64,000 bases of DNA from Saprospira grandis (GCF_027594745.1 NZ_CP110854.1:1116241-1180240); one strand, 5' to 3'. Numbered from the stretch's first letter, positions 2,071 through 61,845 are shown. Made by a program: numbers and translations. The notes: a model not told the origin generated them from the letters alone.

Positions 2071-2348
2071 GTTTTGGGGCGTTACTCCTTTCAGTCGTCG
2101 AACTGCGGCTTGCAGCCTTGTTGTCGCCTCCCTTCGGTCGTCGGCGGTTACTCCCTTTGGTCGTCGAACTGCGAACTAAAGTTCTTGTTGTCGTTCCGCA
2201 GCTCGCTGCTGTTTTGGGGCCTCCCGCCTGCGGCGGGCGCTACGTTTCGCAGCTCGCAGGTCTGCTCGGCCCTGCGGCCTGACGGCCTTGGTCTGCGGCT
2301 ACGCCGCACTGCTGCACATCGCTAGGCCGGTTGGCGGCTTCGCCGCCT
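2071..2348. repeat. GC-rich interspersed repeat family, copy 1 (approximate bounds)
   Basis: Contains shared modules gcgctacgtttcgcagctcgcaggtctgctcggccctgcggcctgacggccttggtctgcgg...cactgctgcacatcgctaggcc. A near-identical copy is at 51342-51505. Confidence 0.85.
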
Positions 2349-2380
2349 AAACCCAAACCTTTGGTCCAGCAAGCTGTTTA

Positions 2381-2566
2381 ATGCAAAAAAAGATGAAGAA
2401 AGACCCTAGAAAAAAGCCTTGGAAAAAAGAGCAGCTCCCTTCCAAAATTTGTATACATTGCGGCCGCCCCTTCAACTGGAGAAAGAAGTGGGCAAAAAAC
2501 TGGGATGCTGTAAAATACTGCTCTAAAGCTTGCCGCAATGGAAAAACGCCTACAACTTCAAGATAG
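2381..2566 (+). CDS. DUF2256-type small zinc-ribbon protein
   Basis: 61 aa, lysine-rich, with motif CIHCGRPFNWRKKWAKNWDAVKYCSKACR (C..C...PF.WRKKW....W..VKYCS..C), typical of the DUF2256 family. Confidence 0.7.
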   Translation: MQKKMKKDPRKKPWKKEQLPSKICIHCGRPFNWRKKWAKNWDAVKYCSKACRNGKTPTTSR

Positions 2567-2987
2567 AATACTGAGCCAAAAATGGGGCTTTTATGTCTTG
2601 CTTTTCCTCCTGCTCTTAGGAGGCAGCTACCTCAACAGACTCCTCAAAGCGGGCATCTTTGGCTGGGCCCTGCTGGCCTTTGGCCTCTGGCAACTTAGCC
2701 GCTCTTTTCAACTGCAATTGCGTCTGGCCCAAAAAGAAATTATCCTAGAACGACAAATTTTTGGCCTGACCATCAAACGCAGAAGCTGCGCTTTCTCTCA
2801 AATGGAATGCTGGGAGCATGGCTGCCGCCTCCTCTTTTTTCAAAATGGCCAAAAATGCCTAGAACTCAGCTTTGAAGAGGAAGGGCTTCGCTGGGCCGAA
2901 AATAACTACCAAAGCCTATTGGCCCAAGCCAAAATAGGACAAGCCCTCTGGGGCAAAATTATGCAGTATTATGGCTTTTTGCGCTAA
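2538..2987 (+). CDS. Hypothetical membrane protein
   Basis: 149 aa ORF with two predicted TM helices. Overlaps the 3' end of the preceding small gene by 29 nt. No recognisable motif. Confidence 0.4.
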   Translation: MEKRLQLQDRILSQKWGFYVLLFLLLLGGSYLNRLLKAGIFGWALLAFGLWQLSRSFQLQLRLAQKEIILERQIFGLTIKRRSCAFSQMECWEHGCRLLFFQNGQKCLELSFEEEGLRWAENNYQSLLAQAKIGQALWGKIMQYYGFLR

Positions 2988-2997
2988 AACTGGCCCT

Positions 2998-3152
2998 TTA
3001 CAGCGGACAGGCGGCGAAGCCGCCGCAGGCCTAGCGATGTGCAGCAGTGGCCGAAGGCCAGACCAAGGCGGCAAAGCCGCCGCAGGGCCGAGCGAATAGC
3101 GAGCTGCGAAACGTAGCGCCGCAAGGCGAAGCCGCAGCGGAGGCCCCAAAAA
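2998..3152. repeat. GC-rich interspersed repeat family, copy 2 (opposite orientation)
   Basis: ggcggcgaagccgccgcaggcctagcgatgtgcagcagtggccgaaggccagaccaagg...cagggccgagcgaatagcgagctgcgaaacgtagcgcc; reverse complement of modules in copy 1. Confidence 0.85.
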
Positions 3153-3306
3153 ATCCAGATGAATATGGAAACTTAACATTTTCTTGAAACAGCCTAAGCC
3201 ATATTTCCTTAGAAAAAAGCGACCTTTGTCCTCAATTTTAAGCCTTTAAGTTGGTCTAATTTGGGCCACAAAAGGATTTCTTCGAATCAATTTACTTGCA
3301 GAACCT

Positions 3307-4794: not shown

Positions 4795-4813
4795 ACGCTT
4801 GTCTTTATTGTAT

Positions 4814-4847
4814 AAAAAAAGGACTGCCTAAGGCAGTCCTTTTTTTG
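4814..4847. terminator. Bidirectional rho-independent terminator between convergent genes
   Basis: aaaaaaaGGACTGCCtaagGCAGTCCttttttt: perfect 8-bp stem with an A-run on one side and a T-run on the other. Confidence 0.75.
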
Positions 4848-4861
4848 TGCCCTACCAAGAG

Positions 4862-5278
4862 TTAACGCACAATATTTTCATGCAAAATGGCCAGCTGCTC
4901 TTTCTGGGCCAACCATTTTTTTAGGGCCAAAAAGCGAGCCTCTCGCTCAGTGCCCGAATAAATAGACAGCTCAATAACAAAGGGCCAATCTTGATAAGAG
5001 GAAAATAAAATCTTTTCTGGTTGATGATTCTGATAGACCGAAAAACTACTAAAAACCTCCTGATCAACCGACTGATAAATCTGCCCAAAAGAAGGCGATA
5101 CAGACAGCTGATAGCTCAACCCATACTGCTTTTCAAAAAGCGACAAAACGGTTTTTACATCCTCGGCCTTAGCGCCAATCTCTAAATAATACTCTACAGC
5201 TTCTGTCATACTACTGCTCGTTTGCGCCATTAAAATGCTGCTGCAAAATAATAGCAGGGGGATTAAAAAATTCTTCAT
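4862..5278 (-). CDS. Secreted hypothetical protein
   Basis: 138 aa; signal peptide MKNFLIPLLLFCSSILMAQ; ATG start. Confidence 0.5.
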   Translation of the reverse strand: MKNFLIPLLLFCSSILMAQTSSSMTEAVEYYLEIGAKAEDVKTVLSLFEKQYGLSYQLSVSPSFGQIYQSVDQEVFSSFSVYQNHQPEKILFSSYQDWPFVIELSIYSGTEREARFLALKKWLAQKEQLAILHENIVR

Positions 5279-5416
5279 ATTAACATTTTTGAGGTAAGGG
5301 GCTCAAAATAAAACATTTAGCAGAAAATTAAAAAACAAATACATTAACCGTATCAATCCTTGCAATTATAAACCTAAGCTATTAACTTAGCGATACATAA
5401 TAAAAACACAAAAATT

Positions 5417-6178
5417 ATGCATCGACTAATTATCTTTCTCCTCAGCTTTTTCCCGCTTCTTCTATTGGCCCAAATCAATACCGACCGCCCCACTCAATCC
5501 GAAAGCTCGGCCCTTGTTTTGCCCAAGCAACTACAGCTAGAGCTGGGCAGTAGCTGGCAGCAAGCCCCCGATTTACAGGCCTATCAATTGCCTGGTTTTT
5601 CTTGGCGCTACGGCCTCATTAAAGGCTTAGAATTGCGGGCCTTGGGGCAGCTGCAGCACCTTCGTCCTGAGCAAGAGCAGCTAAAAAACTACTGGAACCT
5701 TTCGGGCCTTCAGCTAGGCACAAAAATGCAGCTTTTTTCTAGCTCTTCTGGAGCTGCAGAAGGGGCTTGGGTCAGCCAAATAGCCCTTCCTGTGCAGACT
5801 TATGCGGGAGCGAGCAACTGGGCCTGGACCAACAAATTGGCCTTTAGCCATCAGCTCAATAGCCGACACAATTTGGCCTATAATCTGGGCACTCATTATG
5901 CCGAAGGGGGCCAACATAGCTTTAGCTACACCCTTTGCTGGTCCTATAGTTTGGCCAAGGGTTGGACCATTTTTCTAGAGCCTTATGGGCAGTTTTCGCC
6001 GCAAAACAATCCGCAACTTTGGGCCAATACGGGCCTCATTTATTTGCTCAATAACAACCTTCAGCTCGACTGTTCTTTTGGCCTAGACCTACAAACGGCC
6101 CAACAGTATTTTATTGGCCTAGGCCTCAGTAGCCGCTTTTTTGCCCCTTCCAAGGCTAAAGAAGAAGAGGAAGACTAG
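5417..6178 (+). CDS. Putative outer-membrane beta-barrel protein
   Basis: 253 aa. Signal peptide ending LLLAQ. Alternating hydrophobic/aromatic beta-strand-like segments. Unusual acidic tail KAKEEEED. Runs directly into repeat copy 3. Confidence 0.45.
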   Translation: MHRLIIFLLSFFPLLLLAQINTDRPTQSESSALVLPKQLQLELGSSWQQAPDLQAYQLPGFSWRYGLIKGLELRALGQLQHLRPEQEQLKNYWNLSGLQLGTKMQLFSSSSGAAEGAWVSQIALPVQTYAGASNWAWTNKLAFSHQLNSRHNLAYNLGTHYAEGGQHSFSYTLCWSYSLAKGWTIFLEPYGQFSPQNNPQLWANTGLIYLLNNNLQLDCSFGLDLQTAQQYFIGLGLSSRFFAPSKAKEEEED

Positions 6179-6185
6179 TTGTTTT

Positions 6186-6345
6186 CTTTTTTGGGGCTGC
6201 CCCGCCCTGCGGGCGGGTCGGGCTCTGTCGCAGCTCGCAGGGCTGCTCGGCCCTGCAGGCTTTTTCGCTTTGCTTCAAAAGCCTTGGGTCTGCCGCCTTG
6301 CGGCGGCCCTGCTTTCCATCCCTCAGCCGGGGCAGTTTTCTTCGC
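6186..6345. repeat. GC-rich interspersed repeat family, copy 3
   Basis: ttttttggggctgccccgccctgcgggcgggtcgggctctgtcgcagctcgcagggctgctcggccctgcagg...ctttccatccctcagccgg. Confidence 0.85.
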
Positions 6346-6381
6346 TCCAATGGTAATTTCTAGCCACAATCTCCCCCTTCT

Positions 6382-9488: not shown

Positions 9489-9512
9489 TAGGTTTTCGGT
9501 TTGATGATGAAA

Positions 9513-9538
9513 AGGGAGCTTAGGCTCCCTTTTTTTTG
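9513..9538 (+). terminator. Rho-independent terminator
   Basis: AGGGAGCttagGCTCCCtttttttt immediately after the stop of the 8424..9488 gene. Confidence 0.75.
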
Positions 9539-9552: not shown

Positions 9553-9712
9553 CTAGAGGAGCGAAGCGACTGGCCCAGCGCTGCGGAGTGGGTGGCCGAA
9601 GGCCAGACCCAAGCCGCCGCAGGCGGCTGCAGGGCCGAACAGACCTGTGAGCCCCGCAGCATAGCGGCGGCCGACCGAGGCGCAGCCGAGCCGGCCGCGG
9701 GCCCCAAAGCAT
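9553..9712. repeat. GC-rich interspersed repeat family, copy 4
   Basis: cccagcgctgcggagtgggtggccgaaggccagacccaagccgccgcaggcggctgcagggccgaacagacctgtgagccccgcagcatagcggcggccgac...; nearly identical to copy 19 (61693-61845). Confidence 0.85.
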
Positions 9713-9778
9713 AAAAAAATAACCAACCCTAATGCTAGAGTTGGTTATTCTTATGTCTAGAGAAGTAGAAAATTTATC

Positions 9779-11197: not shown

Positions 11198-12706
11198 TCA
11201 AAAATCAAAGGCCCGAGCAAAACAAGCCTCGGCCCAGTTTATTTCTTCCTGCTCAAAATGACGAAATTCTTTTTTTAAGGCTCTTTTTGATAAACGCCCC
11301 TGATTCTGTTTTAAAAATTGATGCAATAAACTTATTTCAGCATCTGAGAGCTCCATTTTTTCTAGCAGCCCTCTTTTAAAGCAATCATAAGCTGCCAAGT
11401 AAGCCAATTCTTTGGGAAGCAGTTCGGCCTTAATTTGCGCCAAACAACTACAAAAAAACTGAGCTTGCCGACTAACATCAAAGTAGCGATAGTAGTCTGC
11501 CGTCTCATTGCTAATCAAGACATTATGATCTGCCGATTCCCGCCATTCTATAAAAGATAAAACTGCAGCAGAATAGCTGCTGAGCGCCTGATGATATCCT
11601 TTTAAATCATTAAGTATAGCTGCTGATATAGGCCAAACAGAAGTCTGTACGCCCCTAGCCCCCAATATATGATGAAAAAGATAACGATGTAAACGCCCAT
11701 TTCCATCAACAAAAGGATGAATGAAGACAAAGGCAAAAGCCATTTCTGCAGCCAATAAAACCAAGGGAAACTCTTTCTCCTCTAAATATTCATAACTAGC
11801 CAAATAACAAGCTAATAGATCCTCTAGATCCGAAGCTTTTGCAGAAATATGCTCTGGCATCGGCTGCCCTGTTGCCCAATCATGCTCTCCTATAAATCCC
11901 TCTTGCTGACGTATACCTAATGCCCGCTTTTGCTTGCCCCCCAAAACAACAGTTTGCAACTCTTCTAATAAAGAAATCGACAAGGGCTGCTGCCCCGCTT
12001 GCCCCAACAAACGAGCCCAGGCCCAAGCCTGATTTGCCCTAGGCCGCTCTCCTTCTATAGAAAAGGAAGCCCTAGAATCTTTTAAGACTAAATAGGCGCT
12101 CGCTCGCTCCAAATCTGCGGAATTAAAATTATTCGTCCAGCTAGAAAAACCCTCTGCTATACAGTCATCTAGTTCTTGGCTCCGAAATATTAAAGGGCAA
12201 AAGCCTGGCAATCCTGGCAAATTATTCAAAATCCTATGCCGTGCAGAACGCTCTGGCCGAACCCCATACTGCAAATGCTCATCCAACAATAAGCAATAGT
12301 TTCCCCGCTTCAAATCATCTAAAGGCAAATGCTGGCCCATTAACCATTCATACAAAAACCAAATCTTTCGACTGTATTTCCCCCCTGGCGCCAAAGCCAA
12401 AAATGCTAATAGCTCTTTTTCTGCTATAGTCTCAAACAGCTTTTTGAAAAAAAGCAAGTTGATGCCTTCATATTTTAAAGCAAATACCAATTGCGACCAT
12501 AAATCATCCTCTGGCTGATAACGAACAGAAAAAACTCGCCAAGCTTCCGTTTCATATTGTCGATGCTTCAAACTAATTAAAGCCAATTTCTCAGGATAAG
12601 GAACTGCTAATCCTAAAGCATTGATAATAGCCCCATAACCCACTAAATAGCCCTCTTCAGCAGCAGCACGCCCCCGAAAAACAGTTATCCTTGATGAATA
12701 TTGCAT
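11198..12706 (-). CDS. Fic-family protein (AMPylase-type, class II with N-terminal inhibitory motif)
   Basis: 502 aa; canonical Fic motif HPFVDGNGRLHR; upstream SFSIEGE matching the (S/T)xxxE(G/N) inhibitory-helix motif. Confidence 0.85.
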   Translation of the reverse strand: MQYSSRITVFRGRAAAEEGYLVGYGAIINALGLAVPYPEKLALISLKHRQYETEAWRVFSVRYQPEDDLWSQLVFALKYEGINLLFFKKLFETIAEKELLAFLALAPGGKYSRKIWFLYEWLMGQHLPLDDLKRGNYCLLLDEHLQYGVRPERSARHRILNNLPGLPGFCPLIFRSQELDDCIAEGFSSWTNNFNSADLERASAYLVLKDSRASFSIEGERPRANQAWAWARLLGQAGQQPLSISLLEELQTVVLGGKQKRALGIRQQEGFIGEHDWATGQPMPEHISAKASDLEDLLACYLASYEYLEEKEFPLVLLAAEMAFAFVFIHPFVDGNGRLHRYLFHHILGARGVQTSVWPISAAILNDLKGYHQALSSYSAAVLSFIEWRESADHNVLISNETADYYRYFDVSRQAQFFCSCLAQIKAELLPKELAYLAAYDCFKRGLLEKMELSDAEISLLHQFLKQNQGRLSKRALKKEFRHFEQEEINWAEACFARAFDF

Positions 12707-12777
12707 ACAAAACAGCTTATTTTATGAAAAGTGCATACAATTTAAGGCTTAAGTTGTAAAAATACTATCATTAGTTT

Positions 12778-13095
12778 CTTTTTTTGGGGCTGCCCCGCCC
12801 TGCGGGCGGGTCGGGCTGTGTCGTGGCTCGCAGGTCTGCTCGGCCCTGCGGCGCAAAGCGCCTTGGTCTGCGGCTGCGCCGCCCCACTTTCCATCCCTCA
12901 GCCGATGCAGGCCAAGGCCTGCATAAAAGCGGCAGGCTATCGCCTATTTTAATATAAAGCGGGCCACAGCCCGCTTTGAATTGGACCAATTTGGCCCAGG
13001 CCGCCCGAGGGATTCCCCTAAGGAATCCCGCAGAGGGCTGAGTGGGCGGGTCATCAGTACGGATGAGGAGCGAAGCGAGGAATAGCGCTTTGGGC
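12778..13095. repeat. GC-rich interspersed repeat family, copy 5, plus S hairpin module
   Basis: tttttggggctgccccgccctgcgggcgggtcgggctgtgtcgtggctcgcaggtctgctcggccctgcgg... followed by gggattcccctaaggaatcccgcagagggctgagtgggcgggtc...gaggagcgaagcgagg. Confidence 0.85.
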
Positions 13096-13135
13096 CAACC
13101 AAAAGCAGAAAAGACTGTTTAAGGAAAAAAACGCC

Positions 13136-13531: not shown

Positions 13532-13534
13532 GGT

Positions 13535-13700
13535 CCAAGGAGGAGGCGAAGCCGCCGAAAAGGCGCGCAGCGCCTCGGCTGAGGGGCTGTAGCAGGGCCG
13601 CCAAAGGCGGCAGACCAAAGCGCTGAAAGCGCTGCAGGGCCGAGCGAACAGCGAGCTGCGCAATGGCCCGACCCGAGCGAAGCGAGGGGCAGCCCCAAAT
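13535..13700. repeat. GC-rich interspersed repeat family, copy 6
   Basis: gaggcgaagccgccg...cagggccgagcgaacagcgagctgcgcaatggcccgacccgagcgaagcgaggggcagccccaaa (reverse-oriented). Confidence 0.85.
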
Positions 13701-13704
13701 CCTC

Positions 13705-21120: not shown

Positions 21121-21612
21121 TTTGGGGCCCGCGGCCCAGGCAGGCCTAGGGCCTGCCTGGGCCGCCGCTATGCTGCGCGGCTCGCTGTTCGCTCGGCCCA
21201 TCGCTTTTTCGCTTTGCTCAAAAGCTCGGTCTGGCCTGCGGCCACCGCTGCGCAGCGCTGGGCCGCTCGGCCTTTTAGCTTGGCCAGTTCTTTCTGCTGC
21301 GGCCCCCTTGGCCCCTCCTTTTAAATGGTATTCGTCGCTGCGCTCCTCATCCGTCTATATGTCCCCGCCCACCCACCCCTCTACGGGATTCCCTAAGGAA
21401 TCCCTCGGGATGGCTGGACCAATTCCTGCACCTCCTCCCCCACTAAATAGGCGGCTTCGCCGCCTCTGGCCCAAAGGGACAGAACGGCCTAGTGATGCGG
21501 CGGGGTGGCCCGAAGGGCCAGACCCAGGCGGCGCAGCCGCCGCAGGGCCGAGCAGACCTGCGAGCCCCAAAGCGTAACGGCGCAAGGCGAAGCCGCAGCG
21601 CAGGCCCCAACT
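21121..21612. repeat. GC-rich interspersed repeat family, composite copy 7 (forward module + S hairpin module + reverse module)
   Basis: ~490 bp between convergent genes; contains ...gctcgctgttcgctcggcc..., gggattccctaaggaatccctcggg, and ...cagggccgagcagacctgcgagcc... modules in opposite orientations. Confidence 0.85.
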
Positions 21613-25424: not shown

Positions 25425-25745
25425 AAGGCGCCAGAGGCCTCTGGATTGTTACATTTGGCTCTGGGGATTCCCCAGAGGCGTCTGGATCGTTACATTTAGC
25501 TCCGGGGATTCCCCAGAGGCATCTGGATCGTTACATTTAGCTCCGGGGATTCCCCAGAGGCATCTGGATCGTTACATTTAGCTCCGGGGATTCCCCAGAG
25601 GCGTCTGGATCGTTACATTTAGCTCCGGGGATTCCCCAGAGGCATCTGGATCGTTACATTTAGCTCCGGGGATTCCCCAGAGGCGTCTGGATCGTTACAT
25701 TTAGCTCTGGCGTGGCGCTGAAGCCATCTGGATCGCTACATCATC
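25425..25745. repeat. Tandem repeat, 41-bp unit x ~7.5
   Basis: Unit tctggatcgttacatttagctccggggattccccagaggc(a/g). Phase checked at 25481, 25522, 25563, 25604, 25645, 25686, 25727. No unique spacers. Confidence 0.9.
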
Positions 25746-28848: not shown

Positions 28849-28887
28849 AGATGATTGATTTATTAGATATGTTCTTTTTCTAATGAT

Positions 28888-29110
28888 TTGGGGCTGCCCC
28901 GCCCTCCGGGCGGGTCGGGCTGTGTCAGGGCTCGCTATTCGCTCGGCCCTGCGCGGGCTACGCCCGCTGGGTCTGGCCTTCGGCCACCCTTTTCCATCCC
29001 TCAGCCTCTGCGGCTAAAGCCGCAGCCAAGCGACATAGCGCTTTGCGCTATGGGCTAAGATGCTGGGCTGGGGCCCAGCATATCGGCGGCTTCGCCGCCT
29101 CTTTGGGCCA
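28888..29110. repeat. GC-rich interspersed repeat family, copy 8
   Basis: tttggggctgccccgccctccgggcgggtcgggctgtgtcagggctcgctattcgctcggccctgcgcggg...ttttccatccctcagcc. Confidence 0.85.
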
Positions 29111-30040: not shown

Positions 30041-30185
30041 TAGAGGCGGGCCCAGCCCGCCGGCCTAGCGATGGTAGGCAGTGCGGCGCAGCCGCAGACC
30101 CAGGCGCTGAAAGCGCCGCAGGGCCGAGCGAATAGCGAGCTGCCGAACGTAGCGCCGACGAGCGAAGCGAGGCGGAGGCCCCAAA
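30041..30185. repeat. GC-rich interspersed repeat family, copy 9
   Basis: ggcgggcccagcccgccggcctagcgatggtaggcagtgcggcgcagccgcagacccaggcgctgaaagcgccgcagggccgagcgaatagcgagctgccgaacgtagcgccgacgagcgaagcgaggcggaggccccaaa. Confidence 0.85.
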
Positions 30186-35664: not shown

Positions 35665-35810
35665 GGGGAGGGCCGAAGGCCCGACGGCCTAGCGATGTGC
35701 AGCAGTGGCCCGCAGGGCCAGACCAAAGCGCTTTAGCGCTGCAGGGCCGAGCGAAGAGCGAGCTGCGAAACGTAGCGCCGACGAGCGTAGCGAGGCGGAG
35801 GCCCCAAAAC
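35665..35810. repeat. GC-rich interspersed repeat family, copy 10
   Basis: ggccgaaggcccgacggcctagcgatgtgcagcagtggcccgcagggccagaccaaagcgctttagcgctgcagggccgagcgaagagcgagctgcgaaacgtagcgccgacgagcgtagcgaggcggaggccccaaaa. Confidence 0.85.
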
Positions 35811-37005: not shown

Positions 37006-37250
37006 TTACTGTTTTTTGGGGCTGCCCCTTCCGCCGGGTTAAAACCCAGCGCAAAGCGGCATCGCTTTGCGAGCTTATACAAAATGAGGGTTAAAACCCT
37101 CATGAATTATCGGCCGGGTCGGGCTGTGTCGTGGCTCGCAGGTCTGCTCGGCCCTGCGGGGCTTTCGCTTCGCTTCAGCCCCTGGGTCTGCGGCTTCGCC
37201 GCCCCACTTTCCATCCCTCAGCCAGCGGCGGCTTTGCCGCCTGTAGGACC
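37006..37250. repeat. GC-rich interspersed repeat family, copy 11, interrupted by a ~75-bp insert
   Basis: ttttttggggctgcccc|ttccgccgggttaaaacccagcgcaaagcggcatcgctttgcgagcttatacaaaatgagggttaaaaccctcatgaattatc|ggccgggtcgggctgtgtcgtggctcgcaggtctgctcggccctgcgg... Confidence 0.8.
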
Positions 37251-41832: not shown

Positions 41833-41958
41833 ACGGCCTAGCGATGTGGAGGGGTGGCCGAAGGCCAGACCGAGGAGCGGAGCGACGAAGGGCCGAGCAG
41901 ACCTGCGAGCCCCGCAACGTAGCGCCGACGAGCGCAGCGAGGCGGAGGCCCCAAAACA
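41833..41958. repeat. GC-rich interspersed repeat family, copy 12
   Basis: ggcctagcgatgtggaggggtggccgaaggccagaccgaggagcggagcgacgaagggccgagcagacctgcgagccccgcaacgtagcgccgacgagcgcagcgaggcggaggccccaaaa. Confidence 0.85.
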
Positions 41959-42009: not shown

Positions 42010-42085
42010 TGGTCGGGATGACTGGACTTGAACCAGCGACCACTCGCCCCCCAGACGAGTACTCTACCAACTGAGCTACATCCCG
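42010..42085 (-). tRNA. tRNA-Pro(GGG): tRNA-Pro (anticodon GGG), CCA encoded
   Basis: The reverse complement CGGGATGTAGCTCAGTTGGTAGAGTACTCGTCTGGGGGGCGAGTGGTCGCTGGTTCAAGTCCAGTCATCCCGACCA has a 7-bp acceptor stem (CGGGATG/CATCCCG). Anticodon stem CTCGT/GCGAG with loop CTGGGGG. Confidence 0.75.
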
Positions 42086-43920: not shown

Positions 43921-44091
43921 GATAATATATATATAGTATGACGGTGTTTAAACGATTTCACTTTGGCCCTTGTCAAGTTTTTTGCCAGCCGCAAGATAAA
44001 GACATCTTGTCAGTTTTTTCTTGCTTTTTGGCAGTTTGTCAGTTTAGCCTGACAGGCCGAGGGGGAGCCATTATTTTTTTATTGATTTTTT

Positions 44092-44411
44092 TGGGGCCTC
44101 CGCAGCTTCGCTGCGGCGCTACGTTTCGCAGCTCGCTATTCGCTCGGCCCTTCGCCAGCAAGCTGGCTCGGTCTGGCCCTGCGGGCCACTGCTACACATC
44201 GCTAGGCCATGAACGAGCGCAGCGAGCTGCGCCCAGCAGGCGGCAAAGCCGCCGCAAAGGCGCGAAGCGCCTCGGCTGAGGGATGGATAGGGTGGGCCGC
44301 AGGGCCAGACCCAAGTTTTTTGAAGCGAAGCGAAAAAAACTGCAGGGCCGAGCAGACCTGCGAGCCCGGCACAGCCCGACCCAAGGCCGTAGGCCGCAGG
44401 GGCAGCCCCAA
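44092..44411. repeat. GC-rich interspersed repeat family, composite copy 13 (forward module then reverse module)
   Basis: ggggcctccgcagcttcgctgcggcgctacgtttcgcagctcgctattcgctcggccc... then ...cagggccgagcagacctgcgagcccggcacagcccgacccaaggccgtaggccgcaggggcagccccaaa. Confidence 0.85.
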
Positions 44412-44500
44412 ATAAAACTTCTTAAATTCCTGTTAAAGCCCTAAGTTTGTCCCCTCCTATTTAGATCAAGAGTGAGCAACTCATTTTAAAAAAACAAACT

Positions 44501-45115: not shown

Positions 45116-45133
45116 GCCTTGAAGTAGAACACT

Positions 45134-49641: not shown

Positions 49642-51336
49642 ATGCGCTTGCTCTCTTTTTTTGCCCTTTTCTTGCTCCTCGCCTGCCAAAATGAATCCCA
49701 AAAAGCGGAGCTGCTCATCTTTAATGGCCCTATTTATACCCTAGATAGTAGCCAAGCTCAGGTCGAAGCCCTGGCCGTAGCCAATGGGAAAATTATCGCT
49801 CTCGGAAATTGGAGCGATATCCAAAAGTATCAAAGCCCTAGTACCGAACTGCTCGATCTTAAGGGCAAAACCCTGATTCCCGCCTTTGTTGAAAGCCATG
49901 CCCATATTCTGGGCCTAGGGCAGTTTAAACGAGAACTGGACCTCAGCCAAGTCAAAAGCTATGAGGAGCTGATCCAATTGGTCCAAGAACAAGCTGCCAA
50001 AACGCCAAAAGGCGAATGGATTCTTGGCCGCGCCTGGCATCAAAGTAAATGGGACTCTCTCCCCTTTTCTATCAAAGGCTACCAAACGCATGATGCCCTC
50101 AGCCAAGCCGTCCCCGATCATCCCGTTTTGCTGATGCACGCTAGCGCCCACGCCCTAATGGCCAACGAAAAAGCCATGCAGTTGGCGGGCCTAACTCCCG
50201 AAACCCAAATGAATGAAGAAGGCGAGATTATCCGCTTTCCCAATGGCCGCCCCACAGGCATTTTTACCGAAAATGCCATGTCGATAATTAAGCAGGCCCT
50301 GCCGCCCGCCGATGAAAATAGCCGCTACCAAGATCTACAAGCGGGTATCCAAGAGGCCCTTAGCTACGGTATTGGCAGCCTGCAAGATGCAGGCTCCGAT
50401 TCTGCCGCTATTGCGCTTTACCGAAAAGCCCTGGCCCAAAATGAACTCCCGCTCCGCCTTTGGGTAATGCTGGCCTATAATAATTATGCTGCCGAGGTCC
50501 AAGGCCAAGACGATCCTTTCCTAGAAAAATGGCTGAAAAAAGGCCCCGAAAAAGGCGATTTTCTCAGTATCGGAGGCATTAAGCTTTATGCCGATGGCGC
50601 CCTAGGCTCTAGAGGCGCTTGGATGCTCGAGGAGTATAGCGACCGAGCTGGCCATTTTGGCCACCCTACTCTCCCCCTGAAAACCATTGAGAAGATTGCC
50701 GAAAAAGCCCTGCTGGCCGACTTCCAACTCTGTACTCACGCCATCGGCGACCGCGCCAACCGAGAGCTGCTCAATATTTATGAACGGGTCCTAAAAGCCC
50801 AACCCCAAGCCGCCAAAGACCACCGCTTCCGAATTGAACATGCCCAACATATTGCCCCCCAAGATATTCCCCGCTTTGCCCAGCTAGATGTTATTGCCTC
50901 GGTCCAAGGGATCCACTTTTCTTCCGATCGCCCCTGGGCCCAAAGCCGCCTAGGCCGCCTGCGCATCGCTATGGGCGCCTACCGCTGGAAACAATTGCTG
51001 GACTCTGGCGCCAAACTGATTAACGGCACCGATGCCCCCGTCGAGTCGATCAATCCGATCGCCTGCTTTTATAGCCTAGTCAGCCGCCAAGCCAATGATG
51101 GCCAAGTCTATGAAGCCGACCAAAAGCTGAGCCGCCTGCAGGCCCTAAAGGCCTATACCCTAGATGCCGCCTATGGCGCTTTTCAAGAAAAGGAAAAAGG
51201 CAGCCTAGAGCTCGGAAAGTTTGCCGATTTTGCCATCCTTTCCCAAGATATTATGCAGGTCCCGCTCCAAGATATTCCCCAAACTAAGGTCCTGCAAACT
51301 ATTGTAGATGGTAAAACGGTCTATTTGAGGGAGTAG
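49642..51336 (+). CDS. Amidohydrolase-family metal-dependent hydrolase (Amidohydro_3-type, secreted/lipoprotein)
   Basis: 564 aa. Signal/lipobox LLLACQ. Metal-binding HAH motif near the N-terminus of the barrel (FVESHAHIL). Distal HA.GD and GTD.P motifs. Confidence 0.7.
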   Translation: MRLLSFFALFLLLACQNESQKAELLIFNGPIYTLDSSQAQVEALAVANGKIIALGNWSDIQKYQSPSTELLDLKGKTLIPAFVESHAHILGLGQFKRELDLSQVKSYEELIQLVQEQAAKTPKGEWILGRAWHQSKWDSLPFSIKGYQTHDALSQAVPDHPVLLMHASAHALMANEKAMQLAGLTPETQMNEEGEIIRFPNGRPTGIFTENAMSIIKQALPPADENSRYQDLQAGIQEALSYGIGSLQDAGSDSAAIALYRKALAQNELPLRLWVMLAYNNYAAEVQGQDDPFLEKWLKKGPEKGDFLSIGGIKLYADGALGSRGAWMLEEYSDRAGHFGHPTLPLKTIEKIAEKALLADFQLCTHAIGDRANRELLNIYERVLKAQPQAAKDHRFRIEHAQHIAPQDIPRFAQLDVIASVQGIHFSSDRPWAQSRLGRLRIAMGAYRWKQLLDSGAKLINGTDAPVESINPIACFYSLVSRQANDGQVYEADQKLSRLQALKAYTLDAAYGAFQEKEKGSLELGKFADFAILSQDIMQVPLQDIPQTKVLQTIVDGKTVYLRE

Positions 51337-51341
51337 GATTT

Positions 51342-51505
51342 GGGGCGTTACTCCTTTCAGTCGTCGAACTGCGGACTAAAGTCCTTGTTGTCGCTGCGGC
51401 TTCGCCTTGCGGCGCTACGTTCCGCAGCTCGCTATTCGCTCGGCCCTGCGGCCTGACGGCCTTGGTCTGCGGCTTCGCCGCACTGCTACACATCGCTAGG
51501 CCGCT
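51342..51505. repeat. GC-rich interspersed repeat family, copy 14
   Basis: tttggggcgttactcctttcagtcgtcgaactgcggactaaagtccttgttgtcgctgcggcttcgccttgcggcgctacgttccgcagctcgctattcgctcggccctgcgg...; near-duplicate of copy 1. Confidence 0.85.
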
Positions 51506-51585
51506 CATCTGCCTTTTTCTAGCTTAAGTTTCTTCTTTGGCGGCTGGGTTGTTTTGGCCCCATGGGCTAAAGCCCATTTGCGGCA

Positions 51586-52005
51586 AGCTATTCTGCAACT
51601 ACAAAATGGCATCTTACAGTTGCGCTAAGCTATTCTGCAATTGCAAAACGGCATATTACAGTTGCGCTAAGCTATTCTGCAACTGCAAAACGGCATCTTA
51701 CAGTTGCGCTAAGCTATTCTGCAACTGCAAAATGGCATATTACAGTTGCGGCAAGCTATTCTGCAACTACAAAACGGCATCTTACAGTTGCGGCAAGCTA
51801 TTCTGCAACTGCAAAATGGCATATTACAGTTGCGGCAAGCTATTCTGCAACTACAAAATGGCATATTACAGTTGCGCTAAGCTATTCTGCAACTGCAAAA
51901 CGGCATATTACAGTTGCGCTAAGCTATTCTGCAACTGCAAAACGGCATATTACAGTTGCGCTAAGCTATTCGCAATTTGTGAAATGGCATTTGTTTGGGC
52001 CTTAG
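51586..52005. repeat. Tandem repeat, 42-bp unit x ~10, each unit with an internal 7-bp inverted repeat
   Basis: Unit agctattctgcaact(a/g)caaaa(t/c)ggcat(c/a)ttacagttgcg(c/g)(t/c)a. Phase checked at 51586, 51628, 51670, 51712, 51754, 51796, 51838, 51880, 51922, 51964. Internal stem GCAACTG...CAGTTGC. Spanned by a 158-aa ORF (51537..52013) that is probably not a real gene. Confidence 0.9.
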
Positions 52006-52084
52006 CTGGCTAGGATTTGGCCAATCATCGCCTAGGGACAAGCCCCTAGGCAGCAAAAAGGGCAAACAAAAAAGCCCAGCCACT

Positions 52085-52175
52085 CCCCTAAGGGATTCCT
52101 TAGGGAATCCCGCAGAGGGGTGGGTGGGCGGGTTATATTGCGAATGAGGAGCGCAGCGACGAATACCGCTTTTGG
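52085..52175. repeat. S hairpin module of the repeat family (third occurrence)
   Basis: agggattccttagggaatcccgcagaggggtgggtgggcgggttatattgcgaatgaggagcgcagcgacgaataccgc; compare 12985-13095 and 21335-21430. Confidence 0.8.
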
Positions 52176-52195
52176 GCCTCCTCAAGAGCAGCGCA

Positions 52196-53443: not shown

Positions 53444-53590
53444 TGGACAGGCGGCGAAGCCGCCGCAGGCTGAGGGATGGACAGCAGTGGCCGTCAGGCC
53501 AGACCCAGCCGCCGCAGGCGGCGCAGGGCCGAGCGAAGAGCGAGCTGCGACACAGCCCGACCCGAGCGAAGCGAGGGGCAGCCCCAAAAT
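53444..53590. repeat. GC-rich interspersed repeat family, copy 16
   Basis: gacaggcggcgaagccgccgcaggctgagggatggacagcagtggccgtcaggccagacccagccgccgcaggcggcgcagggccgagcgaagagcgagctgcgacacagcccgacccgagcgaagcgaggggcagccccaaaa. Confidence 0.85.
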
Positions 53591-57012: not shown

Positions 57013-57023
57013 ACCAGTTTCCT

Positions 57024-57335
57024 ATGCAATTGACTATTTATTTACTCCTGTTCTCTTTTTTTCTGACCTTAGTTCTTTACGGACATTACCGCCTCAAAGC
57101 TCAAGCTGCTAGACTAAATCCAGAAATTTGGGGCCTAGCTGGCCCCATGCTTTTCTTTGGCCTCAATCATTACCTCAGCCTGCTCATTATTGCCCTTCGG
57201 GAGAGCATCAGTAATATTGATTTATTTCTCGCCCTCAGTATAGCAGGCAGCCTTCTTAGCTTTGCGGCCATTTTCTTTATGGCCCCTTACCTAATTTCTA
57301 CGGTCCAAACAACAGCAGAACATGAACGCGATTAG
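57024..57335 (+). CDS. Small 3-TM membrane protein, paralogue 3 (lacks the conserved tail)
   Basis: 103 aa; loop LNPEIWGLAG; ends ...TTAEHERD; overlaps the next paralogue by 14 nt. Confidence 0.5.
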   Translation: MQLTIYLLLFSFFLTLVLYGHYRLKAQAARLNPEIWGLAGPMLFFGLNHYLSLLIIALRESISNIDLFLALSIAGSLLSFAAIFFMAPYLISTVQTTAEHERD

Positions 57336-57672
57336 CCCCCAGCTCCTCACTTATATCCTTAGCCTAATCAGCCTATTTTACTATGCTTCTCTTGCCCCTA
57401 AACACAGCAAGAACACCTTACTATGGGCAGCTTTTGGCTTTCTTTTTCAGACGGGCCTCTCTATCCTTTTCATCCTATTCAGTAAGGTATTTATCGCCCT
57501 ATTCAAAATCCTTTCTTGGCCCATCAATGATTATTGGGCGATTGGCCTGCTCCTTCTCCCCCTAATCGCCTGCGTCCTTAGCCTTAAGCTGGCCCCTTCT
57601 TTTGTTGCGCCCCAAGCAAAAGGCCCCGCTCCTTCCTCCTCCAATTCAGATATTCTAGATGCGGATATTTAG
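57322..57672 (+). CDS. Small 3-TM membrane protein, paralogue 4 (C-terminal SDILDADI)
   Basis: 116 aa; loop SKNTLLWAAFG; ends ...SSSNSDILDADI. The tail is conserved at nucleotide level with paralogue 2 (cagatat(c/t)(t/c)tagatgcggatat). Confidence 0.55.
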   Translation: MNAISPQLLTYILSLISLFYYASLAPKHSKNTLLWAAFGFLFQTGLSILFILFSKVFIALFKILSWPINDYWAIGLLLLPLIACVLSLKLAPSFVAPQAKGPAPSSSNSDILDADI

Positions 57673-57835
57673 GGGCCCGCGGCCGCCCTTTATATAGGGG
57701 CGGCCGCCGCTAGGCTACGCCGCTCGCAAGTCTGCTCGGCCCTGCAGCCCTGCGGGCTTTGGTCTGGCCCTTCGGGCCACGGCTGCGCAGCGCTGGGCCA
57801 TTTGGCCCTGCGGGCCAAGGGGGCTTCGCCCCCTA
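57672..57835. repeat. GC-rich interspersed repeat family, copy 17
   Basis: ggggcccgcggccgccctttatataggggcggccgccgctaggctacgccgctcgcaagtctgctcggccctgcagccctgcgggctttggtctggcccttcgggccacggctgcgcagcgctgggcc. Confidence 0.8.
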
Positions 57836-57864
57836 CATTCCTAAACCTAGCATAAAACACGCCC

Positions 57865-58239: not shown

Positions 58240-58265
58240 GCCATCTGCTAAAAAGGACTGCTGCC

Positions 58266-59291: not shown

Positions 59292-59614
59292 TGGCCATTA
59301 AATATTGCTCCTTGTTCAACCTGCAATCGCTCACAGTCAATATCTCCTTTCAATTGAGCCGAAGCCTGCAAATAGACCAAAGCACTGGCTTTTACATTCC
59401 CCTTGCTCTCGCCCTCAGAAATCATTTCTTTGCAGTTAATCTGGCCCATCACCTTGCTTTTAGGCGCCATCACTAGGCGGCCCCCACAAGAAATTGTTCC
59501 ATGCACCTCTCCTTCCAAACGAATGTTGGCATTGGTCTCTAAACTCCCCTCGATAATGGTCCCCTGCGCCAAAATACATACATCCTTGGCGCCAATAGCT
59601 TTCTTCTCTTCCAT
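59264..59614 (-). CDS. Bactofilin (polymer-forming cytoskeletal protein, DUF583)
   Basis: 116 aa. Repetitive beta-helix pattern (GTIIEGSLETNANIRLEGEVHGTISCGGRLVMAPKSKVMGQINC). 28-nt overlap with the downstream deacetylase gene. Confidence 0.75.
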   Translation of the reverse strand: MEEKKAIGAKDVCILAQGTIIEGSLETNANIRLEGEVHGTISCGGRLVMAPKSKVMGQINCKEMISEGESKGNVKASALVYLQASAQLKGDIDCERLQVEQGAIFNGQCTMPKEKA

Positions 59615-59679
59615 AAAATTAGTTCAAATTTGGTCTTTAAGATAAGAACTTCTCCTTAATAGGCCAAGTTTTTCCTCCT

Positions 59680-59835
59680 TTTGGGGCTGCCCCGCCCTGC
59701 GGGCGGGTCGGGCTGTGTCGTGGCTCGCAGGTCTGCTCGGCCCTGCGCAAAATTTCGCTAGGCTCATTTTGCTGGGTCTGCGGCTGCGCCGCCCCACTTT
59801 CCATCCCTCAGCCGAGGCGCTCCGCGCCTGCAAAA
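59680..59835. repeat. GC-rich interspersed repeat family, copy 18
   Basis: ttttggggctgccccgccctgcgggcgggtcgggctgtgtcgtggctcgcaggtctgctcggccctgcgc...ccccactttccatccctcagccgaggcgctccgcgcctgc; near-identical to copy 5. Confidence 0.85.
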
Positions 59836-59846
59836 CGCAGTTGGAC

Positions 59847-60605
59847 CTATTTCAGGCCCCGCTTTTCACAAATCGTATCATAGGCCTCTTGCAAACGCTT
59901 AAACTTAGACTCCCCCACTTTCTGAAATTCCTCTCCCAAACTCGCCAAACTATCCGGATGATACTTCTTCACCATCTTGCGATAGGCCGCCTTTAATTGG
60001 GCATCAGAGGCAGAAGGGGGCAACTCTAAAATCTTATAATGGCTGTCCATTTCATCATAAAACATCGCCTTAATCGATACAAAATCACTATGCGGTAGGT
60101 CCAACTCCAAGCTAATGCGCTTGATGGTATCCACCTCCACCTGGTCAATACTATAATCTGCATTGGCAATGCCAAACAGAAAATAGAGCATCTGCAAGCG
60201 GGTTTCATAGCTACTGCTCAAATAAATCTGCCGACAAGTTTTGGCCATATCCCAATCTTGCTCTAAGGCCGCACTCAAAATGCCCATATATTCTTGCAAG
60301 TTATCTTGGCCAAACTGCTCGACCAAAAACTTTTGAATATAGCTCAGCTCCAACTCTTCTACTTCTCCATCTGATTTGACCACCGCCGCGGCCAAGATGA
60401 GGGAGCTCAAAATAAAGTTGATGCTGTCGTTGGGTTGTGGCAATTGTTTTTTGCGCCTTTTTGGGCCTCTCCCCCCTCCTTTTTGAAGCAGTATATCTAG
60501 AAAAAAGCCAATACCTAAACCCAGCAAAAGACCAATTGGAAAGTAGAGCAAGCCACCCAACAGCAAGCCTAGAATCTTCCCTATATGTTGTTTTAGTATC
60601 TTCAT
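59847..60605 (-). CDS. DjlA-like membrane co-chaperone (N-terminal TM, TerB-like middle, C-terminal J domain)
   Basis: 252 aa; TM helices at the N-terminus; C-terminal J domain YKILELPPSASDAQLKAAYRKMVKKYHPD. Confidence 0.7.
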   Translation of the reverse strand: MKILKQHIGKILGLLLGGLLYFPIGLLLGLGIGFFLDILLQKGGGRGPKRRKKQLPQPNDSINFILSSLILAAAVVKSDGEVEELELSYIQKFLVEQFGQDNLQEYMGILSAALEQDWDMAKTCRQIYLSSSYETRLQMLYFLFGIANADYSIDQVEVDTIKRISLELDLPHSDFVSIKAMFYDEMDSHYKILELPPSASDAQLKAAYRKMVKKYHPDSLASLGEEFQKVGESKFKRLQEAYDTICEKRGLK

Positions 60606-60610
60606 CTATG

Positions 60611-61642
60611 CTATTTTTTACCCAAGGACCAACTTTGCTGCAGCCACTCACTACTTTTTTGCCACCATTCTACAAAGGGCTGGCTTTTTTCTTCCGTTTC
60701 GGCCAATTGCTCTAAAATGGGTTGTTCGGCGCTGGGGTTTTGCTCTTCGCTCAGGATAGCCAAAAAGCGACTAATTTTGTCTATGGCCTGTTGGGCCTCT
60801 GGCACATAGGCCCAAGCAAACTGCCAAACATGCGGCATGCCCTCCCAAAGGTCCACCCAAATTTTGGCCCCAGCAGCCGCCGCTTTTTCTCCTAAGCGGC
60901 GGCTATCATCTAATAAAATTTCATCTGTACCGACCTGGACCAAAATCGGGGCCGTATCTTTCCAGTCTCCAAACAAAGGAGAAACCAAAGGCGACTTAGG
61001 ATCTGCCGAGCCATAATAAGACCTGGCCCAACTACCTGCATGCTCGGCCCGCAGAATCGGATCATTTTTTTGGCAACGCTCTAGGCTATCTCCAGACAAA
61101 GTCAGATCGGTCCAGGGCGAAAGCACCACGGCCCCCAAAGGCTGCGGCAGCTCCAAGCTTTTTAGTTTTAGTAGCAGACTAAGGACCAGCCCTCCCCCAG
61201 CCGAATCGCCCATAAAAAATATATCTTTTGGTCCATAGCCTTGGTCCAATAAATAATGATAAGCAGAAAGGGCATCATCTAGGCCAGCAGGAAAAGGATG
61301 CTCCGGCGCCAAGCGATAATTTACACTTAAAGCGGGAATGCCCGACTGCGAGACAATTTTGCCCACCAAGGCCCGATGCGCCCTAGCCGAGCCCAACAAA
61401 AAGCCCCCACCATGCAGGTATAAAATGATTTTTGGGTTCTTTTCTGCAGAAGGATGACAAAATTCGGCCGAGCAAGTAGGCAGCTCAACTTCTTGGTAAT
61501 GCAAGCCCTTGGGGGCGGGCAAACGACAAAGGGCTTTATCATGCTCTAGGCGCATTCGGTCAATATCATCTAAATAGATGAGACTCATTTGGCGCATAGC
61601 ACGCATGGCATATTTTACAAAAGTGGATTGTATACTTGGCAT
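60611..61642 (-). CDS. Alpha/beta-hydrolase fold esterase/lipase (Abhydrolase_3, HGGG + GDSAG)
   Basis: 343 aa; oxyanion-hole motif YLHGGGFLLG; nucleophile elbow GDSAGGGL; distal His in ...MPHVWQFAW. Confidence 0.8.
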   Translation of the reverse strand: MPSIQSTFVKYAMRAMRQMSLIYLDDIDRMRLEHDKALCRLPAPKGLHYQEVELPTCSAEFCHPSAEKNPKIILYLHGGGFLLGSARAHRALVGKIVSQSGIPALSVNYRLAPEHPFPAGLDDALSAYHYLLDQGYGPKDIFFMGDSAGGGLVLSLLLKLKSLELPQPLGAVVLSPWTDLTLSGDSLERCQKNDPILRAEHAGSWARSYYGSADPKSPLVSPLFGDWKDTAPILVQVGTDEILLDDSRRLGEKAAAAGAKIWVDLWEGMPHVWQFAWAYVPEAQQAIDKISRFLAILSEEQNPSAEQPILEQLAETEEKSQPFVEWWQKSSEWLQQSWSLGKK

Positions 61643-61692
61643 AATTCTGACTTAATTAAACGCATAATAGACCTAAAGCATCAAAAAGGGCC

Positions 61693-61845
61693 ATGGCCCA
61701 GCGCTGCGGAGCGGGTGGCCGAAGGCCAGACCAAAGGCAGGCTGCGCCTGCCTGCAGGGCCGAGCAGACCTGCGAGCCCCGCAGCATAGCGGCGGCCGAC
61801 CTAGGCGCAGCCTAGCCGGCCGCGGGCCCCAAAAAAAACGAAATC
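61693..61845. repeat. GC-rich interspersed repeat family, copy 19
   Basis: cccagcgctgcggagcgggtggccgaaggccagaccaaaggcaggctgcgcctgcctgcagggccgagcagacctgcgagccccgcagcatagcggcggccgacctaggcgcagcctagccggccgcgggccccaaaa; near-identical to copy 4. Confidence 0.85.

Follow-up and report, generated by a model that had tools for sequence, protein, structure and literature searches.

What are the GC-rich repeats that occupy most of the longer intergenic gaps in a 64,000-nucleotide stretch of the Saprospira grandis chromosome, and have they spread there recently? The stretch (NZ_CP110854.1:1116241-1180240), referred to here as the window, with positions counted from its first letter, comes from strain WH(T) (CP110854.1; WH below). 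An earlier, sequence-only reading had described about 19 copies of an element assembled from shared modules, had likened it to repetitive extragenic palindromic (REP) sequences and bacterial interspersed mosaic elements (BIMEs) or to miniature inverted-repeat transposable elements (MITEs), and had taken near-identical pairs of copies for a sign of recent spread. By comparing the copies with one another and with the orthologous regions of three further genomes, we came to regard them as a REP/BIME-class family of structured intergenic repeats of Saprospira and related Saprospirales, selectively maintained and exchanging modules by ectopic conversion, an explanation that we hold to be somewhat more probable than all others together.

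Aligning the window with itself by BLAST, with diagonal and tandem matches removed before counting, gave 19 dispersed repeat loci between positions 2073 and 61836, summing to 3,711 bp or 5.8% of the window, which agrees with the copy number and the share of about 6% originally proposed. A covariance model (R1), built from an alignment (A2) of 18 oriented window copies, detected 20 complete units with scores of 82-126 bits, 10 on the plus strand and 10 on the minus strand, i.e. with no orientation bias, and no unit in four unrelated control loci. The copies could be mutually aligned, confirming a true modular, highly structured intergenic family; each of the five modules quoted earlier was present in multiple copies, and a quoted 38-mer had 4 matches at up to 3 mismatches versus 0 in 100 shuffles. 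Unit GC content was 0.61-0.76 in a window of 47.1% GC, and the core units covered 2,639 bp, 26% of the intergenic DNA of the window. Units were found in 18 of the 25 gaps of at least 150 bp and in none of the 27 shorter ones, and the occupied gaps were of all three kinds (10 tandem, 4 convergent and 4 divergent). All 20 units were intergenic and no gene was interrupted, in keeping with the earlier statement on open reading frames (ORFs), and the genes of the window are ordinary housekeeping genes. Unit 57669 (units are named by their lowest window coordinate, Table 1) has at its 5' end (57668-57672) TTAGGGGC in place of the usual TTTGGGGC, where TAG supplies the stop codon of ORF 57322-57672; the same variant was seen in S. 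grandis Lewin.

The unit is a fold-back of 120-140 nt, longer when it carries a cassette. On the strand that bears 5'-TTTGGGGC, designated the top strand (the bottom strand reads ...GCCCCAAA), the unit starts with TTTGGGGC and its parts follow in an order that is constant in all units: TTT-GG, the 5' half of helix S1 (GGCNN), hairpin H1, a short tag region and the 5' half of helix S3, then the anchor GCTCGC, a middle module (AGGTCT-like or TATTC-like), the anchor GCTCGGCCC and hairpin H3, then the anchor GGTCTG, hairpin H4, CAC, the 3' half of S3 and the anchor CATC(G/C)CT, and lastly the 3' half of S1 (NNGCC), followed by one or two external hairpins (H5). S1 is a closing helix of 5 bp, in which 5' GGCNN (within TTTGGGGCNN) pairs with 3' NNGCC. 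The four anchors separate slots for interchangeable hairpins (middle module, H3 and H4), the stems of which are near-perfect and highly variable in sequence. Free assembly from modules was therefore too strong a description of what is one fixed architecture with variable slots, and the supposed near-identity of pairs was likewise overstated, since units 9571 and 61694 are 90% identical (127/141) and 2143-2329 and 51342-51505 only 79% (147/187). In terms of S1 and the adjoining sequence, three mutually compensated types were distinguished: A, GGCTG/CAGCC (8 units), B, GGCCT/AGGCC (8 units) and C, GGCCC/GGGCC (4 units). The 5' boundary is sharp, with TTT before GGGGC in 93-98% of copies and a T-richness that fades over about 15 nt upstream, and the 3' boundary is variable.

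The two halves of S1 were complementary in 19 of 19 aligned window copies and in 141 of 156 unique copies from all sources, and S1, S3, the hairpins and a GGCC/GGTC helix were recovered by RNAalifold from a MAFFT alignment. Among 56 copies aligned with the model, standard pairs made up 98.7% of 1,429 pair cells, compared to 77% in shuffled data and 30-61% when the partners were slid by 1-3 columns; double-sided changes occurred in 15 of 26 pairs, and one-sided (G·U-type) intermediates were almost absent. This 56-copy alignment was fitted to the model and is biased toward structure to that extent; however, the MAFFT alignment and a table of orthologues collected by regular expression showed the same pattern. 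Folding of single sequences gave unremarkable z-scores (−0.5 to −2.7) because any sequence so rich in GC folds well, and the support for the structure comes from covariation, not from single-sequence folding.

Regarding the age of the units, we compared the window with its orthologous regions in S. grandis Lewin, S. grandis DSM 2844 and Saprospira sp. CCB-QB6, the last of which is a different species; these regions were reached by way of proteins that cluster with those of the window. Lewin is 94-98% identical to the window over the region (97-98% in the centre), and the divergence of non-element intergenic DNA from the window was 4.5%, 8.8% and 17.8% for Lewin, DSM 2844 and CCB-QB6, respectively. 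Within the range of the window, 53 of 53 model matches in these three genomes fell on the 20 window sites in the same orientation: each of the 20 units had a counterpart in Lewin at the identical site and with unchanged orientation, every covered site was filled in DSM 2844 and CCB-QB6, and neither an empty nor an extra site was found in the compared region. The elements therefore predate the split of these species, showing that the units are old and fixed in position and refuting the proposed recent spread; the similarity of dispersed copies on which that proposal rested is due to invariant anchors and exchange between copies, not to recent transposition. The sole gain specific to WH was the partial half-unit at 2073-2206. 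Its junction repeats CTGCTGTTTTGGGGC, so that it resembles the outcome of duplication through microhomology more than that of transposition.

The same comparison bears on the explanation offered first, an active and recently spreading MITE, which we consider very improbable. The high copy number, the intergenic location, both orientations, the short inverted match of the ends (the 5-bp S1) and the breaking of short-read assemblies at units are all in its favour, but the 53 orthologous comparisons, reaching up to 18% divergence, revealed no presence/absence polymorphism, no terminal inverted repeat longer than 5-6 bp exists beyond the 5-bp complementarity of S1, with the 3' end variable, and no target-site duplication was recognized by eye, the T-run lying 5' of units only and not being repeated 3'. 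On these three grounds the identity as a MITE was rejected; among them, terminal inverted repeats and target-site duplications are where the likeness to MITEs suggested earlier fails. Moreover, insertion sequence (IS) elements of Lewin (rve family) contained no model matches, and the eight pattern matches in viral contigs included no real unit.

At these fixed sites, anchors 1-3 differed between orthologues at 0 of 378 nt in Lewin, 0 of 294 nt in DSM 2844 and 1 of 273 nt in CCB-QB6 (1 in 945 nt), and anchor 4 at 3-4 positions in 157-217 nt. Slot divergence between orthologues was 10-14% in Lewin, 17-29% in DSM 2844 and 16-30% in CCB-QB6, and that of the middle module 29-65%. Anchors and base pairing are conserved far beyond neutral expectation.

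Many of the differences in the slots are replacements of whole segments. At site 12783 only H1 was exchanged in Lewin and DSM 2844, with the rest of the 440-nt gap almost unchanged, and at 44090 WH and Lewin disagreed in five parts of the core (H1 loop, S3, middle module, H3 and H4) although only one difference was counted in the 150-nt flanks. At 35685 the whole core was replaced, type B in WH standing against type A in Lewin, DSM 2844 and CCB-QB6, and the replaced core was flanked by an unchanged H5 and an unchanged GCCCCAAAAC. S3 at 28887 reads AGGG/CCCT in WH and CCB-QB6 and GCAG/CTGC in Lewin and DSM 2844, both halves having switched together with little change in the sequence between them, a pattern that runs against the strain phylogeny. 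Several findings point to other copies as the source. The H3+H4 pair at Lewin 44090 is that of WH units 2213 and 51339. At 9571 and 61694, which are separated by 52 kb, WH and Lewin both have a long H1, and DSM 2844 has a short one at either site. In the Lewin unit at 3027, a 5' end of type B is joined to a 3' end of type A, making it a chimera in which S1 is broken. The repertoire of slot sequences is very large, with 109 distinct H3 sequences among 136 site-occurrences. It is thus shown that orthologous copies differ by block replacement of what their slots contain and that parallel change is possible at distant loci.

Cassettes that recur in one slot also point to other copies as the source: three cassettes of 47, 76 and 35 nt were found in fixed slots, at different sites in different genomes. 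The 47-nt cassette (GTTACTCC...TTGTTGTCG) lies in the H1 slot at window positions 2081-2126, 2147-2193 and 51347-51393, and the 76-nt cassette (GCCGGGTTAAAACCC...GAATTATCGG) in the H1 slot at 37039-37118, being absent in the DSM 2844 orthologue. The 35-nt cassette (ACTTGCTTCGCTGCGTCGGCTCCCGTTGGTCGGGT) occupies the middle slot in the Lewin orthologue of unit 21121 (L136 1194-1228; L numbers are our handles for individual sequences). In addition, a long-hairpin module of 170 nt with inverted ends (CCAGATTTAA(T/A)CGC...GCGTTTAAATCTGG) stands directly after the 3' half of the closing helix wherever found; it is present at the orthologue of window position ~37225 in DSM 2844 (L132 11667-11841) and CCB-QB6 (L133 11667-11841), absent there in WH and Lewin, and was also found on L238, L236, L083 and L135.

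Such exchange raises the question of whether selection at the individual locus is needed at all, or whether the units are selfish DNA in concerted evolution, with frequent and possibly donor-biased conversion from a few competent copies overwriting the decaying ones. Block replacement between orthologues, the parallel change at loci 52 kb apart and the wholesale replacement of about 28% of H3 slots between WH and Lewin (5/18) fit this explanation, and the mismatched closing helix of the Lewin 3027 chimera shows that conversion can be blind to structure. On the other hand, peculiarities of single sites were kept in all four genomes, namely GCTCAC at 9571, GGGCCATTGCGCA at 13576 and an unusual H3 at 41834, and the anchors at those sites were unchanged. 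These segments were therefore not overwritten, and overwriting cannot explain the conservation of anchors everywhere; the retention of GCTCAC at 9571 in particular argues for constraint in situ and against wholesale overwriting. By a rough calculation, in which about 35-40% of H3 slots are retained in CCB-QB6 and neutral divergence is 17.8%, conversion alone predicts about 17 anchor changes per 273 nt in CCB-QB6, where 1 was seen. We therefore consider it unlikely, more so than the RNA explanation discussed below, that the units persist without selection on single loci. From the sequence comparisons we infer that the anchors and the pairing are probably under purifying selection locus by locus, and that ectopic conversion acts alongside in patches.

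The two strands of the unit are not equivalent in the chemistry of their hairpins. Among the 647 hairpins of the 156 unique copies, 467 had triloops (72% of loops), and on the top strand 250 of these were TNC, i.e. GNA on the bottom strand, versus only 8 GNA. Likewise, single mismatches on the top strand were pyrimidine·pyrimidine in 62 cases and purine·purine in 8, and the commonest tandem mismatch was TC/TC on the top strand (30 cases), which is a tandem G·A on the bottom strand, often within GA-GC-GAA-GC-GA, a sequence that contains GCGAAGC. Triloops of the type d(C-GNA-G) and d(GCGAAGC) are DNA mini-hairpins of exceptional stability, and DNA tolerates tandem sheared G·A pairs well. When folding energies were calculated with ViennaRNA, DNA parameters favoured the bottom strand in 136 of 156 copies (mean 2.1 kcal/mol), and RNA parameters did so in only 68 of 156. 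Inverted loops exist, for instance at DSM 2844 sites 53467 and 61694, yet stay rare, indicating that the polarity is maintained; for selfish DNA without selection, this rarity (8 versus 250) would call for selection after all or for a directional mechanism. Loop and mismatch chemistry is thus polar, with GNA triloops and G·A pairs on the ...GCCCCAAA strand.

This polarity is also relevant to whether the units act as RNA, either as cis-acting transcript elements (3'-end protection, termination or processing) or as a repeated ribozyme-like or protein-binding RNA, the junction and helices then reflecting RNA function. Invariant unpaired nucleotides combined with covarying helices are the classic signature of a functional RNA, the TTTGGGGC strand carries an invariant G·U-type pair, and several units lie in probable 3' untranslated regions, unit 35685 being located between a stop codon and a terminator and units 6190 and 51339 beginning 3 nt past a stop codon. 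However, the units face their neighbouring genes either way, those in tandem gaps being split into about 6 of one sense and 4 of the opposite sense; four of the occupied gaps are promoter regions of divergent genes, and units 9571 and 41834 lie beyond terminators, outside transcripts. The near absence of G·U intermediates among the covarying pairs, the predominance of triloops with a GNA bias on one strand and the lack of a stability advantage of the polar strand under RNA parameters all speak against RNA as well, as does the lack of a canonical terminator shape. A search of Rfam 15 returned only three tRNAs at the gathering threshold and, for the units, only chance-level matches at E values up to 10, by which a described RNA family was ruled out. 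Taking both sides together, we judge a function as structured RNA to be unlikely.

Returning to a maintained REP/BIME-class family, the observed exchange and conservation could be brought about as follows. Slot replacement would proceed by ectopic gene conversion or template switching among the many copies, primed on the anchors. What matters biologically may be the ...GCCCCAAA strand as single-stranded DNA in its folded state, since the polarity depends neither on transcription nor on genomic orientation and was seen only under DNA parameters. A structure- and sequence-specific protein might read the anchors, for which a hairpin-binding enzyme of the HUH/Y1 type, as in the pairing of REP with REP-associated tyrosine transposases (RAYTs), or a host factor binding extruded hairpins would be candidates, and recognition by such a protein could keep each copy constrained. 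A more far-reaching proposal, of about the same low probability as the RNA explanation, is a new kind of 'anchor-and-slot' element, in which a lineage-specific protein would read the junction motifs on the folded ...GCCCCAAA strand and promote or catalyse the exchange of cassettes and cores among more than 1,000 fixed sites. It would imply a dedicated system of recombination or maintenance rather than general homologous recombination, retained since before the split of Saprospira and Lewinella-like lineages because the elements serve the chromosome, e.g. as sites of supercoil-driven hairpin extrusion or as protein landing pads.

Several points weigh against the explanation that we favour or against parts of it. 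Wobble-type mismatches showed no strand bias (34 versus 31), and the invariant G·T pair (GGCC/GGTC) of the TTTGGGGC strand becomes an A·C mismatch on the strand proposed as active. The preference for DNA over RNA depends on energies calculated from nearest-neighbour models and on background information about GNA triloops. The copies are related by descent and by exchange, so that counts and p-values overstate their independence, and the orthologous comparison covers a single 64-kb region. No transposition event was seen, leaving mobility unproven, and no cognate Y1 transposase was detected when the ORFs of about 1 Mb were searched by phmmer with IS200, IS608 and RAYT sequences, which is a weak test.

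The family extends beyond the window. A scan of metagenomes with the anchor pattern identified many contigs of JGI sample Ga0193958 with up to seven units each, and in eleven long loci, after discounting the match that had brought in each locus, unit density was 1 per 3.4 kb, as in the window. Extrapolation to a 4.25-Mb genome gives approximately 1,200-1,300 units. Contigs of 37-51% GC contained divergent members (57-77 bits) with the same anchors and with new compensated pairs both in S1 (CTGTG/CACAG, GCGTG/CACGC and GGCTA/TAGCC) and in S3 (CTAG/CTAG, AAGC/GCTT, GGAG/CTCC and GTAG/CTAC). On one of these contigs, the closest named relative of a flanking protein was that of Lewinella cohaerens (63% identity, compared with 35% for Aureispira), indicating that the family reaches beyond Saprospira within the Saprospirales. 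A looser pattern, run over a collection of genomes, mostly hit high-GC genomes by chance, and in the metagenome-assembled Saprospiraceae genome L067 that it brought up, model R1 found no unit.

The individual units and the partial half-unit of the window are listed in Table 1.

Table 1. Units of the repeat family in the window, with strand, S1 type, score under model R1 and particulars of the site.
Position	Strand	Feature	Score (bits)	Remarks
2073-2206	+	Partial 5' half-unit		Two 47-nt cassettes (GTTACTCC...TTGTTGTCG); absent in Lewin, DSM 2844 and CCB-QB6
2213-2329	+	Core unit, type B (GGCCT/AGGCC)	110.6	Followed by external hairpin H5 to ~2348; orthologues in Lewin, DSM 2844 and CCB-QB6
3027-3150	-	Core unit, type B	113.1	Has orthologues
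6190-6329	+	Core unit, type A (GGCTG/CAGCC)	92.9	Begins 3 nt (plus T-run) past stop codon of ORF 5417-6178
9571-9708	-	Core unit, type C (GGCCC/GGGCC)	82.3	Between terminators of two convergent genes
12783-12904	+	Core unit, type A	109.6	Extra hairpins and a copy of the second repeat family downstream, to 13108
13576-13699	-	Core unit, type A	92.4	With its two external hairpins occupies the entire convergent gap 13532-13704
21121-21265	+	Core unit, type C	86.7	
21485-21611	-	Core unit, type B	104.8	
28887-29007	+	Core unit, type A	100.1	
30061-30185	-	Core unit, type B	117	
35685-35808	-	Core unit, type B	126.1	Type B in WH, type A at the orthologous site elsewhere
37015-37224	+	Core unit, type A	103.5	76-nt cassette (37039-37118) in H1 slot
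41834-41955	-	Core unit, type B	103.9	Beyond tRNA-Pro terminator
44090-44209	+	Core unit, type B	113.1	
44273-44412	-	Core unit, type A	97.3	Inverted (3'-end to 3'-end) relative to unit 44090
51339-51503	+	Core unit, type B	87.3	Model match 51393-51503; 47-nt cassette in H1 slot; begins 3 nt past stop codon of ORF 49642-51336
53467-53588	-	Core unit, type A	99.7	
57669-57800	+	Core unit, type C	103	
59680-59814	+	Core unit, type A	109.3	
61694-61833	-	Core unit, type C	85.9	90% identical to unit 9571

The units leave traces in deposited data. In Lewin, annotated 'genes' of 36-88 amino acids on L131, L134 and L136 (e.g. L136 1105-1332, 9645-9794, 11371-11541 and 14644-14841) coincide with units, have no Pfam match and are probably spurious ORFs, bearing out the earlier remark that the repeats generate such ORFs. 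Logan short-read contigs of WH(T) (SRR23239775/6), namely L124 (4126 bp), L126 (3126 bp) and L002, break at units or a few tens of bases into them, so that contig ends mark element positions.

Other repeats and variable regions were also noted in the window. A second, unrelated structured repeat of about 100-120 nt (...GGGATTCCCCTAAGGAATCCC...GAGGAGCGAAGCGAGGAATAGCG...) occurs at 12985-13108 (+), 21329-21422 (-) and 52091-52191 (+); its copies are 82% identical, lie at the same sites in Lewin, DSM 2844 and CCB-QB6, and were also found on Ga0193958 contigs. Two intergenic tandem arrays with 93-96% match were found at 25431-25707 (41 nt x 6.8) and 51578-51975 (42 nt x 9.5). The length of 51346-52049 around the second array differs in Lewin and DSM 2844, which is why this array is probably a variable-number repeat, and ORF 51537-52013, which lies over it, is probably spurious. 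The segment 39613-41835, next to tRNA-Pro (42010-42085), is a strain-variable island, for which Lewin has only 288 bp; in WH it contains a gene for 381 amino acids (the DSM 2844 counterpart has a GmrSD_N domain) and small ORFs, and in DSM 2844 additionally an AAA_15/HNH pair, a restriction-modification pair and a HEPN gene. The Fic-domain gene 11198-12706 (indel 11273-12661) is present in WH and DSM 2844 and absent from Lewin and CCB-QB6; the indel is bordered on one side by a tandem duplication of 30 nt (12678-12740). Lewin has IS insertions (rve-family transposases) that are absent in WH, next to tRNA-Phe (window 45117-45120) and near ~58050; their coordinates are L131 15935-17421 and L134 13370-14579, and neither matches the repeat model.

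If the extrapolated copy number holds, one structured element makes up approximately 4-6% of the chromosome of Saprospira and close to a quarter of the DNA between its genes. Its mode of evolution is also unusual, in that positions are frozen across species and a few short motifs across family-level divergence, and the helices between them are swapped like cassettes, so that parts serving recognition (the anchors) and parts needed for pairing only (the slots) are set apart more clearly than in the known REP, BIME and BOX elements. With the units, nature provides a system in which to study how short repeats undergo ectopic conversion and how selection acts on DNA hairpin chemistry (GNA loops and G·A pairs), as well as long-term coexistence of repeat and host outside the Proteobacteria. 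In practical terms, they break short-read assemblies, seed spurious gene calls in deposited annotations and would confound alignment-based studies of intergenic evolution in Saprospira and its relatives.

Several other identities were considered and rejected. In an intrinsic terminator the order of parts would be reversed, as the T-run precedes the structure here; only incidental terminator matches were present inside units (checked over 1-20 kb), and genuine terminators stand beside them, e.g. at 9510-9537 and 9715-9752 around unit 9571. Independent small RNA genes were dismissed for want of a promoter motif upstream and a terminator downstream. A promoter, with the TTTG of the 5' end as the Bacteroidetes -7 box, was dismissed since the upstream profile contained neither TAnnTTTG nor a -33 motif. 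By inspection, the core sites of integron attC sites (RYYYAAC ... GTTRRRY) were absent, and the units are found in both orientations between housekeeping genes. A case apart are the palindrome-associated transposable elements (PATEs) derived from IS200/IS605, which have subterminal hairpins at both ends, lack terminal inverted repeats and target-site duplications, insert 3' of a fixed short target and show an orientation bias with replication; for them the observations point both ways. In the units, hairpins lie near both ends, terminal inverted repeats and target-site duplications are absent and a fixed TTT precedes GGGGC; their orientation is unbiased (10:10), and no similarity to a known IS end was found.

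Among known systems, the closest to the units are the REP/BIME elements and REPINs of Proteobacteria, as the sequence-only reading had also suggested. They are alike in being GC-rich extragenic palindromes in hundreds of copies and both orientations, without terminal inverted repeats or target-site duplications; in forming mosaics of conserved motifs and palindromes (BIME); in residing at orthologous sites for a long time; and in hints that the form that matters is a single DNA strand in its folded state. GTAG-tagged REPs, which are recognised by RAYT transposases, have an unpaired GTAG (or CGTC) tag at one end of the palindrome (PMC3733652), to which the GTAG directly beside H1 on one strand of type B units may correspond. 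In our copies, the tag beside H1 on the bottom strand was GTAG in 51 of 57 type B, ATAG in 18 of 21 type C and ACAG in 52 of 65 type A copies. However, a REP is a single palindrome of 20-40 nt and a REPIN a pair of them, whereas the unit has 120-140 nt, 4-5 hairpins, a closing helix and a multi-helix junction, only its H1 arm being REP-like. In addition, its conserved parts are the unpaired anchors and its palindromes are hypervariable, GTAG occurs in only about 37% of copies, the host belongs to the Bacteroidota and the ORF search brought up no RAYT.

BOX elements of Streptococcus pneumoniae and the enterobacterial repetitive intergenic consensus (ERIC) sequences, or intergenic repeat units (IRU), of enterobacteria are likewise modular structured intergenic repeats of 100-200 nt for which a mobilising enzyme is not known, and in BOX the terminal modules pair (boxA with boxC) and the internal ones vary. 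They have no sequence similarity to the units, which are approximately ten times more numerous (about 1 per 3.3 kb), and to our knowledge neither the slot-and-anchor pattern nor the strand-polar GNA and G·A chemistry has been described for BOX or ERIC. Correia elements, the MITEs of Neisseria, are small, abundant, non-coding intergenic repeats that also break short-read assemblies; they have 26-bp terminal inverted repeats, TA target duplications and insertion polymorphism among strains, none of which is found for the units. GC clusters and double-hairpin elements of fungal, algal and sponge organelles resemble the units in their GC-rich palindromic modules within a genome of lower GC content, their nesting and their preferred positions, but are organellar and much shorter, have no conserved multi-helix scaffold and give no evidence of a common origin. 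No description of the family was found in the searchable literature, a coverage that leaves out the Lewin genome paper, or in the genome announcement of WH(T). The family is undescribed: REP/BIME-like in lifestyle, it has a much larger scaffold, follows an anchor-and-slot logic, lives in hosts of the Bacteroidota and is as old as a family-level split.

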